Assembly: GCA_016933575.1 (NCBI GenBank)
Contig: JAFGAR010000025.1
Coordinates: forward strand, 1 to 64,000
Length of the DNA: 64,000 nucleotides
Origin: Candidatus Thorarchaeota archaeon
GTDB taxonomy: Archaea; Asgardarchaeota; Thorarchaeia; Thorarchaeales; Thorarchaeaceae
Reading direction: 5' to 3'
The notes under the pieces are model-generated. The model ran no database searches. It was not told the origin of the DNA and saw nothing but the letters and a program-made list of their open reading frames with translations. Below, piece after piece: positions 55,910-64,000 of this stretch. Position 1 is the stretch's first letter. Every line of letters starts with the position of its first letter. A program made the translations under genes and the position numbers.

Positions 55910-57907
55910 CTAAACCAACAATCCTGAGCACCAGAGCACGATGCGTAAGACCAGCTGCCCATTATCAGCTTCGCCATACTCGCCTAGTAATGCCCAGTTG
56001 TCAAGCATGTAGTTGCTTCCTGTAACAACCAATCGCCCAGTTCCTTCTTTATATCCCATTACAGGCATAATTCCATAACGTGCAAGTCCATGTCCATCGC
56101 CAAGAATCTGGATTGTCGCTCCTAAGTAATGAAATGAATTCACTCCTGATGTGATTATATGAGAATCAATATCATCAATCAAAGCAGGTGTATCTCCGCT
56201 TGGAACTTCGGAGGAAGTCATTGTGAAACCAGTCCAATCAAGAAATTCGTTCAAAGCAGTCAGATTAGCTACTGATTCTGATAGGCCTACTACGAAGAGT
56301 CCTCCCCCAGCATTGTAATAATCCTCGTAAGCGTGAATCTCAGTTTCTGAAAAGGGAAGTGAATAGTCCGTCACACTTGTAGGAATAGTCTCATTCCTTG
56401 AATAGACGCAGGGATCAAGAAGAACTACTGCATCGAATTGTTGAAGGAAGCTTAGTGTGGTCAATGAACTATTACGTATCTCTGTCACTGAGATATCATT
56501 ATCGACAAGTACTTTGTAGAATTCTCTGAACTGCCCATAGATCGTGTCCAAATCCCATGGTGTATGCGATATATCAAAGGCTACTCTACCTACTGATGTT
56601 CCAACATCAATCGAGATGGTGAGTTCTGTCACTCCAAAATCCGGCGATGTGAATGTGATGTTACCTTGGATGACTGTTGCACCAGAGTCTGGTATCTCTA
56701 CTGTGATTGGGACTCTTGCTGTCTGATTGACCTCGATGGTGTTCTCAATGATGAAGACTGAAGGTGTATCACTGTCTATCTCAACATCAAAAGTCGTGTA
56801 TCCAGAGGTCAGGAGTCTGATATCAAAGGAATATGTATCTCCCTCGAATAATCGCTCAAAATCGATGGGTAGAGTGCCTGGGAATGCATAGCTTATGATT
56901 GGTAACTCACCGTCTAATGATGTCTGTTCTATGATGTAGAGCGACTGTTGAAGGTTGAGTTTTCCTGCTCCAACCTCGTAGTCTGGATATGCTGCCATCG
57001 AATCAGCTCCCTTCAGGAGAGCTGTCATGATGGTTCCAGGTGTATATGTAATATTGTTAGTTAGGCAGTAACCAATGAGTGCTGCTGCAGCTCCAGCTAC
57101 TCTAGGTGCTGAAAAGCTTGTTCCGTAATATCGTGTACCACTACTATCAGTAATATATCCTGGTGCACAGATATCTGGTTTCATTGTTTTCTCACGGGTA
57201 GGTCCTGTGGATGAGTAATCAGCTAGTTCACCATTTTCCGAGAGCGCACCAACAGCAATACATACATCAAATACTGCCGGGGATTCAACTGTTGTACCAG
57301 GAATTCCACTATCTCCCGAGTTACCAGCAGAAGTTGTTATTACTACTCCTTGGGAAAAAGCCCAATTCAAAGCATCCTCAATAGGATCTCCAAGGGTTGG
57401 AGTCCCTCCAAGACTCAGATTGATGACACTCGCGTTTTGTTCAACCACCCAATGAATTGCTTCGACGAGTGCCATTGTTGTGGCTGAACCATCATCTCCC
57501 ATGACCTTCGCATTAATAATCAGAGTATTTCCTATTGTAGCAATCTGTTTGGCTATCAATGTCCCATGAGGAACATTATCTGGCCTCGAATCCGACACTG
57601 TTAGGTCTGTACTTGGATATCCATTTGCAACTGTAACAAAACTCTGTTCTGCCACCACTCTTCCCTGTAGTGAGAAATCTATGTCAACTCCTGAGTCGAT
57701 GACAGCAACTCTGACTGGTTCATATGAAGAAGTGTTTGTCGGATTATAATTCCCGATGAAGACAAGCCCTGTAGATACAACGACCATGATGATAATGATA
57801 AGCGCGATGATTCTCGTTCCATTAGATCGTGGTTTTCGTTGTGGTTGTGCAGTTTCCCAGTAAAAGCTCACTATTGACACCTGATTGAAATAGACCGCGC
57901 GCGGCAT
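55910..57907 (-). CDS. Membrane-anchored S8 subtilase, site-1 protease (MBTPS1)-like (probable start GTG 57871)
   Basis: VIDSG, PHGT, SAGN, GTSFSAP triad; C-terminal FDISH...WDLDTIYGQFREFY GATase-like domain. Confidence 0.85.
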   Translation of the reverse strand: MPRAVYFNQVSIVSFYWETAQPQRKPRSNGTRIIALIIIIMVVVSTGLVFIGNYNPTNTSSYEPVRVAVIDSGVDIDFSLQGRVVAEQSFVTVANGYPSTDLTVSDSRPDNVPHGTLIAKQIATIGNTLIINAKVMGDDGSATTMALVEAIHWVVEQNASVINLSLGGTPTLGDPIEDALNWAFSQGVVITTSAGNSGDSGIPGTTVESPAVFDVCIAVGALSENGELADYSSTGPTREKTMKPDICAPGYITDSSGTRYYGTSFSAPRVAGAAAALIGYCLTNNITYTPGTIMTALLKGADSMAAYPDYEVGAGKLNLQQSLYIIEQTSLDGELPIISYAFPGTLPIDFERLFEGDTYSFDIRLLTSGYTTFDVEIDSDTPSVFIIENTIEVNQTARVPITVEIPDSGATVIQGNITFTSPDFGVTELTISIDVGTSVGRVAFDISHTPWDLDTIYGQFREFYKVLVDNDISVTEIRNSSLTTLSFLQQFDAVVLLDPCVYSRNETIPTSVTDYSLPFSETEIHAYEDYYNAGGGLFVVGLSESVANLTALNEFLDWTGFTMTSSEVPSGDTPALIDDIDSHIITSGVNSFHYLGATIQILGDGHGLARYGIMPVMGYKEGTGRLVVTGSNYMLDNWALLGEYGEADNGQLVLRIVLWCSGLLV

Positions 57908-58081: not shown

Positions 58082-61024
58082 TTGTCCATAGAAGACGCCA
58101 TCACAGAAGCATCACCACTATCGTATCATTCAGTACCTCTTGAAGAAGTGCTAAGCACACTCCAAGTAGATACTTCTCATGGTCTTTCTATCGAGGAAGC
58201 AAAAAAGAGACTGATTGAATCCGGACCAAATTCCATACCAAGATACAGAGGTGCATTTTGGCAGGTCTATATTGCCCCGATCCTAAATTGGTTGATAACC
58301 ATCTATATTATCAGTTCCTTCGCTTTGGTCTTCATTGCTTTTACTTTTCCTTCAGAAGCCAACGCAATTAGTCAAGCTTCAATCTGGCTTGGTGTTGTTG
58401 CTGTGAATGCCATAGTAGCCATGATACAACAATATCGTGCTCAGAAAAAACTAGAGGCGTTGGAGAAACTCTCTGCAGGGGAAGCCCGGGTCATCAGAAA
58501 TGGAAAAGAAGCTTACATCTCACCAATTGACATTGTACAAGGTGATATTGTAAAACTGGAACAGGGTGATCGTATCCCAGCTGATGCACGTCTGGTGAAT
58601 TCCTCGAACTTGATGACTAATGAAGCATCTTTGACAGGCGAGTCTGTGCCAATTATTAAGAACGAAGATGCACACGTGGCTGACAATGCTCCCCTAACTG
58701 ATAGACTCAATATGGTCTATTTTGGTACTTATGTTGCCTCTGGAATGGCCACCGTGGTCACAACAGCTACTGGTGGACGAACTGAGATTGGTAAGATTCA
58801 GGGAACACTTGAGGCGTTGAACACTGGAGATATTCCACTACGGAGAAAGGTCAATCGTTTGGCAAAGTACCTCGGAATTGCAGCGATAATCCTGATGGCA
58901 GTATCAGTCATCTGGCAGGTGTTTCTATATCCATTCCTTCATGGAGATGTCTTTGACTTTAGTATCCAATATCTATCAGAACGGATTGGTGCAGGCATAA
59001 CTCGGGCAATGACCATTATGCCAATTAACATCCCATTACTTACGACAATTGTACTTCTTACTGGAGTTCTTGCAATGGCAAAGAGAGGCGTTATCATTAG
59101 AGACCTCTCAGCCGTTGAAAGTCTTGGTCGCGTGAGCGTTATTTGCAGTGACAAGACTGGAACAATGACAAAGAACCAGATGACCGTGAAATACTGCTGG
59201 GACTCACAGAACCTCTTCTCTGTAAAGGGCGATGGTTATAACCCTGAAGGAGGTATCTATCTTCTAAAAGGTGCTACTAATTCCAATCTCTTAGACGTCG
59301 AAGAGGAACTAGTTGATGATGTGTTCAGATGGAAAGGTCTCTTCCGCTTGATAAACTGCGGCGGTCTAGCAAACGATGCAGAGATCATAACAGAAAATCT
59401 TCCAGATCAAGGAACAATATGGGTTCCCCTCGGTGACCCAACAGATGCAGCATTACTCACCCTATTTCGAAAGAGTGGTATTGATGAGGTAGGAATCAAG
59501 GAACGTTACAAGATTGTAGAAGAATTCCCCTTTGAATCTGAGTTAAAGAGAATGTCCAAGATCTGTCAGGATGAGAAGAAGTTCATCGCTTTTGTCAAAG
59601 GCGCCACAGAAGTACTCATGCCTCTGTGCGACTATGTCAATGGGAAAGACACTCCCTCAAAAATTACTCCTGGACTTCTTGAAAGAGTGAATATCCTTAC
59701 GAATGATTTTGCCGCAAAGGGATATCGAGTGATCTCACTTGCATACAAACAAATGGACTCAGTCCCTACAGGCAATACAGCTCGTGAAATCGCAGAGAGT
59801 CACTTGATCTATCTCGGCTTTGCTTGCATTGTTGATCCACCCCGTGAAGGAGTAAAGGAAGCAGTCCAGGCATGCCACAGTGCAGGAATTAATGTAATTA
59901 TGATTACAGGTGATGCTGTGGCAACAGCAAAGACAATTGCAAAAGGTCTTGGTATTTTCGAAGAGAATTCTCTAGTTGCAGAGGGCTCTCAAATATATGA
60001 CCTAAATGATGAGGACTTTGCAAGAACAAATGTTTTCGCTCGTGTGAACCCAGAACACAAGCAGATCATCGTAGAGCGCTATCAGGACCAGAATAAGGTC
60101 GTAGCGATGACAGGGGATGGGGTGAATGATTCACTAGCTCTAGCGATGAGTGATGCTGGAATAGCTATGGGAATCACTGGTACCGATGTTGCGAAGGAAG
60201 CCGCTGATATTGTCATTACAGATGATAGCTTTGCTTCTATTGTTACAGGAGTCCATCAGGGTAGAGGTCTCTTCAATAAGATACGAATGATGATCTACTT
60301 CTATGTAGCAATCAATCTCTTTGAGAGTATCATCTTCTTCGGAGCATTGTTCATCTTACCGCACTATATTGAGCTACTAAGCACATGGCAGAGTCTCTAT
60401 CTTGTTGTCACTACGCACTCGTTTCCTGGCCTAGCTCTAGTATTCGATAGAACCTCGCCTCGAGCAATGGAAGATAAACCCCGTGACAGTCAGGAGATTA
60501 TAACCCGGAATCTTGCCAAAATTATGGGTGTCAATGTAGTTCTCATGACCATAAGTGCAGCCTTAGTTTACTTCTTGACTTTTGCAGGGTACGTGGCTGT
60601 CGCTCCGGAAAATATGACTGGTTTTTGGGAGATCTTCAGACCAGCTGAACCTAATTTATTCTATGATATCGAAGGTCCCATCTGGTCCTTGCTGAAATCT
60701 ACTAGCATGCTCCTATCAGTCATTCTTATCGTGGAGAGTACACTGGTTCTCCTCATTCGTAGAATCAATCTTCCATTGCACAAGAGCCTTCGTGAACCTG
60801 GAACCTGGATCTTTGTGATATTACTTGGCCTAATCTATCTAGCACATTTGCTATTGATGTATGTGCCAATGGTGAATGAGATACTTGCAACCTATGGTCT
60901 TCTCTTCTACATCATTCCTTTGACTGCCTTTGACTGGTTGATATGCATCCTATTAGCCCTCCCAACGATACTTGGTGTAGAGCTCTACAAGCGACGATTC
61001 AGAGAACGAGATGTGGATCTTTGA
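58082..61024 (+). CDS. P-type ATPase, P2A-like scaffold with non-canonical transport site
   Basis: LTGES, CSDKTGT, KGATE, DPPR, TGD, GDGVND; 10 TM; M4 reads MPINIP. Confidence 0.93.
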   Translation: MSIEDAITEASPLSYHSVPLEEVLSTLQVDTSHGLSIEEAKKRLIESGPNSIPRYRGAFWQVYIAPILNWLITIYIISSFALVFIAFTFPSEANAISQASIWLGVVAVNAIVAMIQQYRAQKKLEALEKLSAGEARVIRNGKEAYISPIDIVQGDIVKLEQGDRIPADARLVNSSNLMTNEASLTGESVPIIKNEDAHVADNAPLTDRLNMVYFGTYVASGMATVVTTATGGRTEIGKIQGTLEALNTGDIPLRRKVNRLAKYLGIAAIILMAVSVIWQVFLYPFLHGDVFDFSIQYLSERIGAGITRAMTIMPINIPLLTTIVLLTGVLAMAKRGVIIRDLSAVESLGRVSVICSDKTGTMTKNQMTVKYCWDSQNLFSVKGDGYNPEGGIYLLKGATNSNLLDVEEELVDDVFRWKGLFRLINCGGLANDAEIITENLPDQGTIWVPLGDPTDAALLTLFRKSGIDEVGIKERYKIVEEFPFESELKRMSKICQDEKKFIAFVKGATEVLMPLCDYVNGKDTPSKITPGLLERVNILTNDFAAKGYRVISLAYKQMDSVPTGNTAREIAESHLIYLGFACIVDPPREGVKEAVQACHSAGINVIMITGDAVATAKTIAKGLGIFEENSLVAEGSQIYDLNDEDFARTNVFARVNPEHKQIIVERYQDQNKVVAMTGDGVNDSLALAMSDAGIAMGITGTDVAKEAADIVITDDSFASIVTGVHQGRGLFNKIRMMIYFYVAINLFESIIFFGALFILPHYIELLSTWQSLYLVVTTHSFPGLALVFDRTSPRAMEDKPRDSQEIITRNLAKIMGVNVVLMTISAALVYFLTFAGYVAVAPENMTGFWEIFRPAEPNLFYDIEGPIWSLLKSTSMLLSVILIVESTLVLLIRRINLPLHKSLREPGTWIFVILLGLIYLAHLLLMYVPMVNEILATYGLLFYIIPLTAFDWLICILLALPTILGVELYKRRFRERDVDL

Positions 61025-61113: not shown

Positions 61114-61965
61114 TTGACACGAATGACGACTCATAAGATTGGTCAGATGAAGACCAAGAGCAAGAAGATAGTCATGCTCACAGCCTATGATGCACCTACA
61201 GCCTCGATTTTGAGTGAATGTGGTGTGGACATGATCCTTGTTGGAGACTCAGTGGGCAATGCTCTTCTTGGATATGAGAGTACAATTCCTGTCACCCTTG
61301 ATGATGTCATTCATCACTGCGCAGCTGTCTCAAGGGCACGACCGGATTCACTGATTATCGGCGATATGCCCTTTATGTCCTATAAGGTCAGTGAGGAACA
61401 GGCTCTCGAAAATTGTGCACTTATGCTTCAAGAGGGCGGAGCTGAGGCAGTAAAGATCGAAGGTGCTGGCCGAGTTGTTGATATTGTACAAGCTGTCGTA
61501 GATGCTGGTATCCCGGTCATGGGGCATATTGGCCTTACTCCACAATCTATCTTTCAGATGGGTGGTTACCGAGTCCAGGGAAGAACAGCAGAAAAGACTG
61601 AGCTGCTCGTTGAACAAGCCAAGCAACTTGAGGCGGCTGGAGCCTTTTCTATGGTCATTGAGCTAGTACCATCAGAGACCGCGAAGATGATAACAGAAGC
61701 AGTTAGTATCCCAACTATTGGAATTGGAGCTGGTCCGTATTGTGATGGACAGGTTCTTGTCCTCTGGGATATGTTAGGTCTCTTTGAGGACTTTAAACCT
61801 AAATTTGTCAAAAAATATGCATGTATTCGTGATGTCATCAAGAATGCAGTTTCCGAATATGCAGAAGATGTACGGAAGGGTACCTTCCCTGAAAAAGAAC
61901 ATAGTTTTGAGATGTCAGAAGAAGAAACTGGACGTCTGTATGGTAGAAGTAAGCCCTCCCGATGA
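61114..61965 (+). CDS. panB: 3-methyl-2-oxobutanoate hydroxymethyltransferase
   Basis: MLTAYD, LVGDS, DMPFMSY, VKIEG, GHIGLTPQ, GIGAG..CDGQVLV. Confidence 0.96.
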   Translation: MTRMTTHKIGQMKTKSKKIVMLTAYDAPTASILSECGVDMILVGDSVGNALLGYESTIPVTLDDVIHHCAAVSRARPDSLIIGDMPFMSYKVSEEQALENCALMLQEGGAEAVKIEGAGRVVDIVQAVVDAGIPVMGHIGLTPQSIFQMGGYRVQGRTAEKTELLVEQAKQLEAAGAFSMVIELVPSETAKMITEAVSIPTIGIGAGPYCDGQVLVLWDMLGLFEDFKPKFVKKYACIRDVIKNAVSEYAEDVRKGTFPEKEHSFEMSEEETGRLYGRSKPSR

Positions 61966-62301: not shown

Positions 62302-62745
62302 CTACAGTATCATATTGTCTAAGCCCATCTCTCGTAGGACTTCAGGATAGATTTTATAGAGTGGCTTGATTTTCGAAAGTAGTCCAAGTGCCTTGGAAAC
62401 AGATCCCTCAAGCTTGACCTGTCCCCTAGCCATTGCCACCGTTGTGGAAAGTTTATCCTGCCAGAATTTGTTTGTTGTTTCTGATTTTGACCAGACCTTA
62501 ATCTCTGGTTCTACTGTACTATCAAATGTTAGAGTACCAATCTCGCCATCTGGTCCCGGGTCTCTAAAATTAATGGTCAGGTGTGCTTCAGGGTCTTCAA
62601 TATCAAAGCGTACTACAACTTGTGATGTAGCAAGTTTCTGCATTACTTCAGACTCTTTCTTTGCTTCTATCCAGAACTTGTTAAAAACTTCCATTAATTG
62701 ATCTTTACTCTCAAAGGCTACCAAAATAATGACCTCCGATAGCAC
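62302..62745 (-). CDS. SCP2 sterol/lipid-binding domain protein
   Basis: FWQDKLSTTVAMARGQVKLEGSVSKAL SCP2 signature. Confidence 0.8.
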   Translation of the reverse strand: MLSEVIILVAFESKDQLMEVFNKFWIEAKKESEVMQKLATSQVVVRFDIEDPEAHLTINFRDPGPDGEIGTLTFDSTVEPEIKVWSKSETTNKFWQDKLSTTVAMARGQVKLEGSVSKALGLLSKIKPLYKIYPEVLREMGLDNMIL

Positions 62746-62799: not shown

Positions 62800-64000
62800 T
62801 TAGTTAGTAAGAAGGTATCTCTCAATCTCCCAAGGAGTAATCTCTGAACTTGGTAGGTCTCCAGTAGCTTCAATGAATTCAGACCATTCCTGACCTCTGA
62901 TTCTCACCAAAGTATCCACAACGTTCTCTCCCAAGGCACTCCTTACGATTGTACTCCTTTCTAATCTCAATAGTGCATGAACTAAAGATTGTGGGAGTGA
63001 TTCAAGAGAACCAAGTGACTTGTACACATCTCGATCTGTAGGCACCGGTGCATCAAGTTTCCGTTCTATTCCAGCCAATCCACTAGCAAGAAGCACTGCT
63101 ATAGCCAAGTGTGGTGAAGATGAAGGATCGGGACATCTTATTTCTATTCTTGCTGACTTCTTTGAACCATTGAAATGAGGTATCCGTATCATAGTACTGC
63201 GATTTCGGTAGCCCCACGCTATGCTTGTAGGAGCTTCAAAACCGGGTACCAACCTCTTGTAGGAGTTTACAGTAGGTGCAAGAATTGCTGCTAGTTCGTG
63301 TGCATCCTCTAAGAGACCTCCAATAAAGTGCATTGCAAGCGGAGAGATTCCACTAGGTCTTTCTGTTGCAAATAGATTGTTTTCTCCTTGAAGATCCCAG
63401 ACACTCTGGTGTAGGTGCATCCCTGATCCGTTCTGATTAGAGAAGGGTTTTGGCATAAATGTGGCAATCAATCCTCGTCTGTAAGCAATCTCTGAGATTA
63501 TGAGCCTAGCAAGAAGTATGTTGTCTGCTGCCACTTCTGCTGAACAGTATTGAAGGCCAATCTCTTCTTGCCCCTGTGCGACCTCATGATGATGAGACGT
63601 AGTTGGAATGCCAACTGCCTGCAGAGTCCTGATAATATCGCGTCTAAAATCCAGACCACAGTCACTGGGCTGCGAGGAGAAATACCCTCCACGATCAAGA
63701 GGAACAAGAGTATCATCATGCAGTCGCCTGACAGTGAAGAACTCGAGTTCACTTCCAACCATTAACTGATATCCCATTTTGTGAGCTTTATCTACAATCC
63801 TTCTAAGGATATATCTTGGATCACTCAGATGAGGTTGTCCTGATATTTCGTGGACCGTGCATATGATATAGGCAGCGGCAGGATCCCACGGTTGGAGAGT
63901 TGGGGTGGCGCTAGAAGGGAGAAGGAGAAGATCGCTCTCGTTAACCGACGCATATCCAGGGACTGATGAACCATCGATAACAATGCCATTCTCAAGGACC
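62800..64000 (-). CDS. glnA: Glutamine synthetase type I family, 5' truncated by the window edge
   Basis: Frame open upstream of track start (IDGSSVPG...SDLLL...DPR); ELEF, HHEVA.GQ.E, TFMPKP, GSGMHLHQS, NSYKRL, NRS..IRIP, EIRCPD. Confidence 0.92.
   Translation of the reverse strand, partial: VLENGIVIDGSSVPGYASVNESDLLLLPSSATPTLQPWDPAAAYIICTVHEISGQPHLSDPRYILRRIVDKAHKMGYQLMVGSELEFFTVRRLHDDTLVPLDRGGYFSSQPSDCGLDFRRDIIRTLQAVGIPTTSHHHEVAQGQEEIGLQYCSAEVAADNILLARLIISEIAYRRGLIATFMPKPFSNQNGSGMHLHQSVWDLQGENNLFATERPSGISPLAMHFIGGLLEDAHELAAILAPTVNSYKRLVPGFEAPTSIAWGYRNRSTMIRIPHFNGSKKSARIEIRCPDPSSSPHLAIAVLLASGLAGIERKLDAPVPTDRDVYKSLGSLESLPQSLVHALLRLERSTIVRSALGENVVDTLVRIRGQEWSEFIEATGDLPSSEITPWEIERYLLTN

Follow-up and report, generated by a model that had tools for sequence, protein, structure and literature searches.

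A P-type ATPase of Asgard archaea with a rewritten transport site on a P2-type scaffold: a putative single-site cation pump

Each family of P-type ATPases is tied to a known substrate class. What, then, is carried by a pump whose transport site has no counterpart among the characterised pumps? This question is raised by a gene at positions 58,082 to 61,024 (forward strand) of the window, i.e. the 64,000-nucleotide stretch of contig JAFGAR010000025.1 of a Candidatus Thorarchaeota archaeon (assembly GCA_016933575.1) that was analysed. The gene belongs to a group of sequences, hereafter referred to as the variant or PxNxP / M6-His clade, whose motifs in the fourth and sixth membrane helices (M4 and M6) differ from those of Ca2+ pumps. 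It probably encodes a working single-site pump on a P2-type scaffold, with a small cation other than Ca2+ as putative substrate (probability approximately 0.6).

Catalytic core and transport site

The open reading frame (ORF) encodes an intact P-type ATPase, in which every catalytic motif is present on a P2-type scaffold of ten helices. A preliminary description of this DNA, made from the sequence alone, had reported intact TGES, DKTGT, KGA.E, DPPR, and GDGVND motifs, all of which were confirmed and assigned coordinates (Table 1). Membership of the superfamily is indicated by the DKTGT, TGES, TGD, and GDGxND motifs and by a score of 265.4 bits for the TIGR01494 model (cut-off of 62.3 bits). 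The Pfam domains of the product are Cation_ATPase_N, E1-E2, Cation_ATPase (N-domain), HAD, and Cation_ATPase_C, which is a P2-type architecture. An AlphaFold2 model based on a 50-row alignment was confident (predicted local distance difference test of 85.9; predicted template-modelling score of 0.76) and contained ten transmembrane helices. In this model, M4 is broken within the Pro-Ile of PINIP and M6 within the His-Ser that follows TT; these breaks correspond with the unwound segments from which P2 pumps build their canonical binding pocket. Among the 50 best Foldseek matches, there were P2 pumps only and no P4 or P5 pump, the best folds being those of SERCA and SPCA. They included SERCA2b (E-value of 2.8e-59; template-modelling (TM) score of 0.71), SPCA1, Na,K- and H,K-ATPases, and LMCA1.

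In SERCA, Ca2+ site II is formed by E309, N796, and D800 and site I by N768, E771, T799, D800, and E908, with D800 bridging both sites. These residues were mapped onto the window protein by phmmer alignments to the solved structures LMCA1 and SERCA2. The P-domain was required as an anchor for this mapping, the M5-M10 segment alone giving no match at 1e-5 among PDB sequences. The positions changed are E309 (Ile315), G310 (Asn316), N796 (Val775), and D800 (His779), and those kept are N768 (Asn745), E771 (Glu748), T799 (Thr778), and E908 (Glu885). Read against the established SERCA structure, this residue map indicates that the canonical ligands of site II are erased (E309 into Ile, N796 into Val, and D800 into His) and that site I is essentially retained, the bridging Asp being swapped for His. 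The features that define the P2A transport site were indeed not found. The gating Glu of the M4 motif PEGL, present in 100% of the canonical relatives, is missing from the window protein (PINIP) and occurs in 0 of the 45 clade representatives described below. Similarly, the M6 ligands of the N..TD motif are replaced by Val775 and His779, canonical relatives having Asn and Asp in 97% and 89% of the cases, respectively.

The M4 PINIP (59,021 to 59,035), the M6 His (codon starting at 60,416), the polar residues kept in M5 and M8, and the consequent lack of canonical Ca2+ binding at site II had all been read by the preliminary description, and the ORF translation and the SERCA2 alignment bore these readings out. 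Its account of the transport site was correct as far as given and is refined here by the Val at the N796 position. What it had missed is the retention of site I with an Asp-to-His exchange, the M4 Asn, invariant among the orthologues, and the M8 Glu as a feature of the clade.

Conservation of the transport site

The conservation of PINIP and the M6 His in Asgard orthologues, which the preliminary description had suggested as a check, was assessed with a word-indexed search that retrieved 120 orthologues (67-87% identity), labelled mostly Thorarchaeota. MPINIPLL was present in all 120 and the His motif in every orthologue long enough to reach M6, the replacements being fixed without any sign of decay or sequence error. 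Furthermore, all 15 homologues from other Asgard families, at approximately 50% identity, contained M4 MPINI[PV]LL, M5 N..E, and M6 His, the T799 position drifting among them. When 1.84 billion representatives were searched exhaustively with phmmer, approximately 40 variant clusters (at 50% identity) were obtained, with a lowest identity to the query of 36%. In these clusters, M4 reads P-[ILFVW]-N-[ILF]-[PVI] and the M6 His is present in most; three lack the M4 Asn, one of which also lacks the His. Beyond the variant clusters, the matches changed abruptly to the canonical PEGLP and NLxTD.

Residue frequencies were calculated for 45 representatives, each at less than 60% identity. P314 (100%), N316 (93%), H779 (98%), and E885 (96%) dominate their positions, and position 315 is never acidic. 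The E309 position is occupied by Ile, Val, or Phe, and the N796 position by a hydrophobic residue. E748 is invariant in all 50 rows of the alignment, in variant and canonical sequences alike. Gln occupies the E885 position in 67% of the canonical relatives, so that Glu is a feature of the clade there. The window protein bears all four marks of the clade, namely the M4 P-h-N-h-P (h, hydrophobic), the M5 Glu, the M6 His, and the M8 Glu. As the replacement residues are near-invariant over a deep clade, the M4 and M6 replacements are under purifying selection. Deviations in M5 were seen in some paralogues, the Asn being Ser in the PINLP lineage and Leu in the PFNFP copy of Promethearchaeum syntrophicum MK-D1.

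Proposed mechanism and substrate

On the basis of homology to site I of SERCA, the five residues Asn316, Asn745, Glu748, His779, and Glu885 would form a single transport site. This pocket would be made up of the kept Asn745 and Glu748 (M5) and Glu885 (M8), together with His779 (M6) and the new Asn316 in the unwound M4. The pump would follow an ordinary Post-Albers cycle, in which one small non-Ca2+ cation enters the His/Glu/Glu/Asn/Asn pocket from the cytoplasm, triggers the phosphorylation of Asp357 upon binding, and is let go outside, with protons on Glu/His as probable counter-ions. Both the direction of transport and the nature of the substrate are putative. His/Asn/Glu sets resemble ZIP-type metal sites, and the combination of imidazole with carboxylates is suited to either a first-row transition metal or a proton. 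Given a small non-Ca2+ cation, the substrate may tentatively be sought among the divalent cations of the first-row transition metals (Mn2+, Fe2+, Zn2+, Co2+, or Ni2+), which, if true, would mean that metal pumping was invented independently of the P1B family. Transport of H+ is a less likely option, and that of Na+, K+, or Mg2+ a still less likely one.

Several points weigh against the proposed cation pump and its suggested substrates. First, the His and carboxylates can be explained equally well by a metal, by a proton relay, or by a counter-charge built into the protein. Secondly, transition-metal export of the P-type is already covered in the genome to which the window belongs, by two CPC-type (copper-type) P1B pumps (G000:C78:65800-68466 and G000:C114:4447-6072) along with a cation diffusion facilitator (CDF) exporter; because the latter is present, nothing can be inferred on metal export. 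Thirdly, several Asgard genomes encode P3A H+-ATPases besides the variant, which makes a simple redundancy with H+ pumping less likely. Lastly, a universal partner gene was not found across the 94 loci compared, where synteny is lineage-specific only, and the neighbours give no indication of the substrate.

Alternatively, the protein might transport Ca2+ (or Mg2+) after all, a single ion being bound in a non-canonical manner by the retained pocket of site I. Asgard P2-like pumps have been counted as putative Ca2+-ATPases and taken as support for Ca2+ signalling in at least one transportome study (PMC7997004). In addition, relatives are publicly annotated as 'Ca2+-transporting ATPase', and the equivalents of N768, E771, T799, and E908 are present in the window protein. 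This alternative is nevertheless improbable, as the equivalent of D800, the bridge of both SERCA sites, is a His in 98% of the clade, His being a poor ligand of Ca2+ and Mg2+, while the T799 position is not conserved in the clade and the E309 position never carries an acidic residue. Moreover, the genome, which is 85.5% complete, already encodes two canonical P2A-like pumps with PEGL, N..E, and NLVTDG (G000:C56:29476-32358, L169; and G000:C196:14095-16953, L170), so that the gene in the window is a specialised paralogue rather than the cell's only Ca2+-type pump. The label 'Ca2+-transporting ATPase' is probably wrong for the variant branch.

Relationship to known pump families

The top sequence matches of the window protein were P2A Ca2+-ATPases, a group that includes LMCA1 (1.4e-112), SERCA1/2 (SERCA2, 1.1e-107), SPCA1/PMR1, and prokaryotic P2A-like pumps. 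The likeness extends to the Pfam architecture, the top NCBIfam models, the structural matches (TM-score of approximately 0.7), the M5 N..E, and the unwound M4 and M6. Unlike these pumps, the window protein lacks the PEGL Glu and the Asn and Asp of M6, it has a His at D800 and an Asn at G310, and it has a Glu at E908 instead of the Gln of most prokaryotic relatives; identity is 28-40%, and the variant is not nested among the sampled canonical sequences. The NCBIfam models scored in the order PMR1-type, P2D, SERCA, PMCA, P2C, P3A, P3B, P5, and P4. All P2-P5 models remained below their cut-off, including the equivalog models TIGR01522 (PMR1-type; 464 versus 798) and TIGR01116 (SERCA-type; 416 versus 703). 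A score below every equivalog cut-off was considered as evidence of novelty and rejected, since the canonical paralogues of the same genome were below the cut-off of TIGR01522 too (668 and 591 versus 798); low NCBIfam scores alone are therefore not diagnostic.

Two phylogenetic trees were constructed with references that included bona fide P3A pumps (present in 22 of 121 Asgard genomes and in 0 of the 17 in the window's own family) and P3B pumps (present in 17 of the 121), and without eukaryotic P2B-D, P4, P5, and P6 references. In both, the variant group formed one side of a branch and was not nested in the sampled canonical P2A-like set, the two trees giving support values of 83 and 0 for its stem. 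Without constraint, the searches grouped canonical, P3A, and P3B pumps apart from the variant, with values of 98 and 97 in the Shimodaira-Hasegawa-like approximate likelihood ratio test. Yet, a tree constrained to unite variant and canonical pumps had a log-likelihood that was 14.7 units higher and was not rejected (approximately unbiased test, p = 0.744), and a placement outside canonical P2A-like, P3A, and P3B pumps together was hence not retained as a finding. As far as can be judged from sequence comparison, the variant group represents a deep lineage of its own that is allied to the P2A-like pumps. It is plausibly a new family-level branch, in line with the candidate new P-type subclass that the preliminary description had put forward.

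P3A H+-ATPases share with the window protein a hydrophobic residue at the E309 position inside PxxxP (P-V-A-L-P in Asgard P3A pumps) and a single, largely uncharged transport centre. However, they form a separate clade with 100% support, their model TIGR01647 gave 324 bits for the window protein (cut-off of 615.5), and they use a proton-carrying Asp in M6, while the Asn/Glu of M5, the His of M6, and the Glu of M8 are all lacking.

With P4 flippases, the window protein shares the Ile right after the conserved M4 proline (PISL in P4), which the preliminary description had interpreted as a flippase-like gate in a possible P2-to-P4 intermediate. Accordingly, the pump might move a lipid or some other substrate that is large or organic, be it flippase-like or P5-like (polyamine or peptide), with the M4 Ile as a hydrophobic gate. 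The gene for an SCP2 lipid-transfer-domain protein at 1.3 kb in Thorarchaeota and that for a GNAT acetyltransferase 4-72 nucleotides downstream, on the same strand, in one sub-clade may be seen as consistent with such a substrate, although both neighbours represent lineage-specific synteny and are not universal. Overall, this possibility is very improbable. Given the Val of Asgard P3A proton pumps at the E309 position, an Ile there is not diagnostic of a flippase, and the claim of a flippase-like gate does not stand. Further, the window protein has TGES instead of the DGET of P4 pumps, and its M4 has the PxxxP of P2 and P3 pumps, whereas PISL lacks the second Pro. The P4 model TIGR01652 (112.6 bits versus a cut-off of 431.25) and the P5 model (221 bits) scored lowest of the P2-P5 models, the PhoLip_ATPase Pfam domains are absent, and the termini are of the P2-type. 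Together with the best folds, which are all of P2 cation pumps, these features speak against an intermediate between P2 and P4. The conserved polar quintet, moreover, looks like a site for a small ion. P4 pumps have been described as unique to eukaryotes (PMC10654040). For the Cdc50-type beta subunit of P4A pumps (PF03381), no match was obtained in the 85.5%-complete genome, which carries no weight because the control was silent in every genome as well.

Two further families are of interest for the single-site cation pump proposed here. The P6 family (CtpE), the only one added since 1998, keeps PEGL and has an Ile for the M6 Asp (Palmgren 2023, PMC10654040). It provides a precedent for the splitting of a prokaryotic family from the Ca2+-pump type through the loss of the M6 Asp and differs, by its published description, from the variant, which lacks PEGL and has a His at the Asp position. 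In P1B-4 metal pumps (sCoaT type), a transport-site His in the M6-equivalent helix acts as an internal counter-ion (Palmgren 2023, PMC10654040). These pumps thus resemble the variant in having a functionally important His in that helix but possess another scaffold (eight transmembrane helices and an SPC motif in M4), and the P1B paralogue of the window's genome is a distant outgroup in the trees. No published description of the variant clade was found in the searched literature on Asgard P-type ATPases, functionally uncharacterised P-type ATPases (FUPA), and M4 motifs. Further P-type families are expected from prokaryotes only (PMC10654040), an expectation that the variant clade fits. Rather than being a novel type of machine, the clade varies the theme of the cation pump.

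Distribution among Asgard archaea

The variant branch is deep and strongly conserved, occurs in most sampled Asgard genomes, and is often present in multiple copies. A scan of 400 Asgard genomes gave best E-values in three bands, with a match at or below 1e-120 in approximately 295 of 399 genomes (about three quarters); all of the matches at this level that were inspected were of the variant type. The degenerate pattern P-h-N-h, 39 codons, DKTGTxT was searched at the DNA level in one genome per prokaryotic species, and the 80 loci among the matches listed were nearly all Asgard (Thor, Loki, Hermod, Hod, Heimdall, Odin, and Sigyn). Among these 80, four contigs had non-Asgard labels (two Nitrososphaeria, one Methanomethylicus, and one 'Aerophobetes bacterium'). 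In the tree, one of the Nitrososphaeria sequences and the Aerophobetes-labelled one nest inside Asgard sub-clades, which fits horizontal transfer or misbinning. The latter sequence (L052; NJBP01000013.1, 'Candidatus Aerophobetes bacterium') is a variant pump of the Loki type and a close neighbour of Lokiarchaeum ossiferum in the tree, and its contig is probably a misbinned Asgard contig. Of the 20 divergent clusters, every named member was Asgard.

L. ossiferum and P. syntrophicum MK-D1 (loci L159-L168) each possess three variant paralogues, with M4 types PINIP, PINLP, and PFNFP/PINFP, besides canonical PEGLP pumps. With three paralogues in each of these cultured Lokiarchaeia, the substrate question is approachable at the bench. 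A non-transporting or regulatory ATPase, a decaying paralogue, or a sequence error, as the loss of classic ligands in a single sequence would suggest, is hardly credible given the near-invariance of the replacement residues over a clade reaching down to 36% identity, the intact catalytic motifs, the lack of stops or frameshifts in roughly 150 matches listed from the 400 genomes, and the co-retention of three paralogue lineages in both cultured Lokiarchaeia. A further-reaching and quite speculative proposal is that the clade represents an undescribed P-type family of a rank comparable to that of P6, essentially restricted to Asgard archaea and already split into no fewer than three paralogue lineages by the time at which the two cultured Lokiarchaeia parted, the single His/Glu/Glu/Asn/Asn site of which carries a substrate not known from any P2/P3-type pump, such as a first-row transition metal.

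Tandem duplicates of the variant occur in many metagenome-assembled genomes (L016, L033, L042, L053, L075, L087, L088, L093, and L094). One P2A-like pump of L. ossiferum (L168; G401:C1:1386880-1388439) has M4 P-S-G-L-P (Glu into Ser) with a canonical M6 (WVNLVTDG), which is another kind of site variant than PxNxP / M6-His. Distant matches (P0164, P0174, P0188, P0212, P0213, P0247, and P0266) were P-type ATPase-like proteins of 1400-1700 amino acids with the pump domain in the C-terminal half, several of them without a recognisable M4 proline motif.

Genomic context and feature coordinates

Table 1. Position of the P-type ATPase gene, its motifs, and its neighbouring genes in the window
Feature	Position	Strand	Basis or remark
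P-type ATPase gene, PxNxP / M6-His clade	58082..61024	+	980 amino acids; TTG start; one ORF
A-domain TGES, dephosphorylation motif, residues 185-188	58634..58645	+	P2/P3 type, unlike P4 DGET
M4 PINIP (P314-P318); Ile315 at E309 position, Asn316 at G310 position	59021..59035	+	Alignment; model helix broken at 313-315
DKTGT phosphorylation site, Asp357	59150..59164	+	Invariant in 50-row alignment
N-domain KGAxE, nucleotide-binding motif	59597..59611	+	Motif in translation
P-domain DPPR	59834..59845	+	Motif in translation
P-domain MITGD	59900..59914	+	Motif in translation
P-domain GDGVND, hinge motif	60113..60130	+	Motif in translation
M5 NLFE; Asn745 = SERCA N768, Glu748 = SERCA E771	60314..60325	+	SERCA2 alignment
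M6 Val775 at N796 position	60404..60406	+	SERCA2 alignment
M6 TTHSFP; His779 (60416-60418) at D800 position	60410..60427	+	Alignment; model helix broken at 779-780
M8 IVES; Glu885 (60734-60736) = SERCA E908	60728..60739	+	SERCA2 alignment
M10 start FDWL; Asp951-Trp952, outer helix end	60929..60940	+	Asp 91% in clade
Subtilase	55910..57907	-	
Ketopantoate hydroxymethyltransferase (panB)	61114..61965	+	
SCP2 lipid-transfer-domain protein	62302..62745	-	
Glutamine synthetase	62800..63999	-	

In Thorarchaeota, the ATPase gene is located between the subtilase gene and panB, followed by the SCP2-domain gene (Table 1). The order subtilase-ATPase-panB-SCP2 was found in 7-10 loci, the taxon-labelled ones belonging to Thorarchaeota or Promethearchaeota, and looks like lineage synteny rather than an operon. 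Upstream of the ATPase gene, an Rfam scan gave chance-level matches only.

Other sub-clades have other neighbours. In one of them, an ORF of approximately 320 amino acids lies 18-160 nucleotides upstream of the variant ATPase gene, on the same strand, as in L033 (1750-2712, +) and 15 further loci, among them L085 (3056-4033, -) and L093 (1250-2224, +). At the N-terminus of its product lies a zinc ribbon, which matches the TFIIB zinc ribbon weakly and below threshold, and a membrane ORF of 195 amino acids is divergent from the zinc-ribbon ORF. This zinc-ribbon protein may be a dedicated TFB-like regulator. In another sub-clade, the GNAT acetyltransferase (PF13302) mentioned above is encoded next to the ATPase in most of approximately 11-13 loci, for instance L018 (3930-4490, +) and L028 (3604-4971, -), and a DUF362 gene usually comes next. 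The ATPase, GNAT, and DUF362 genes are probably co-transcribed.

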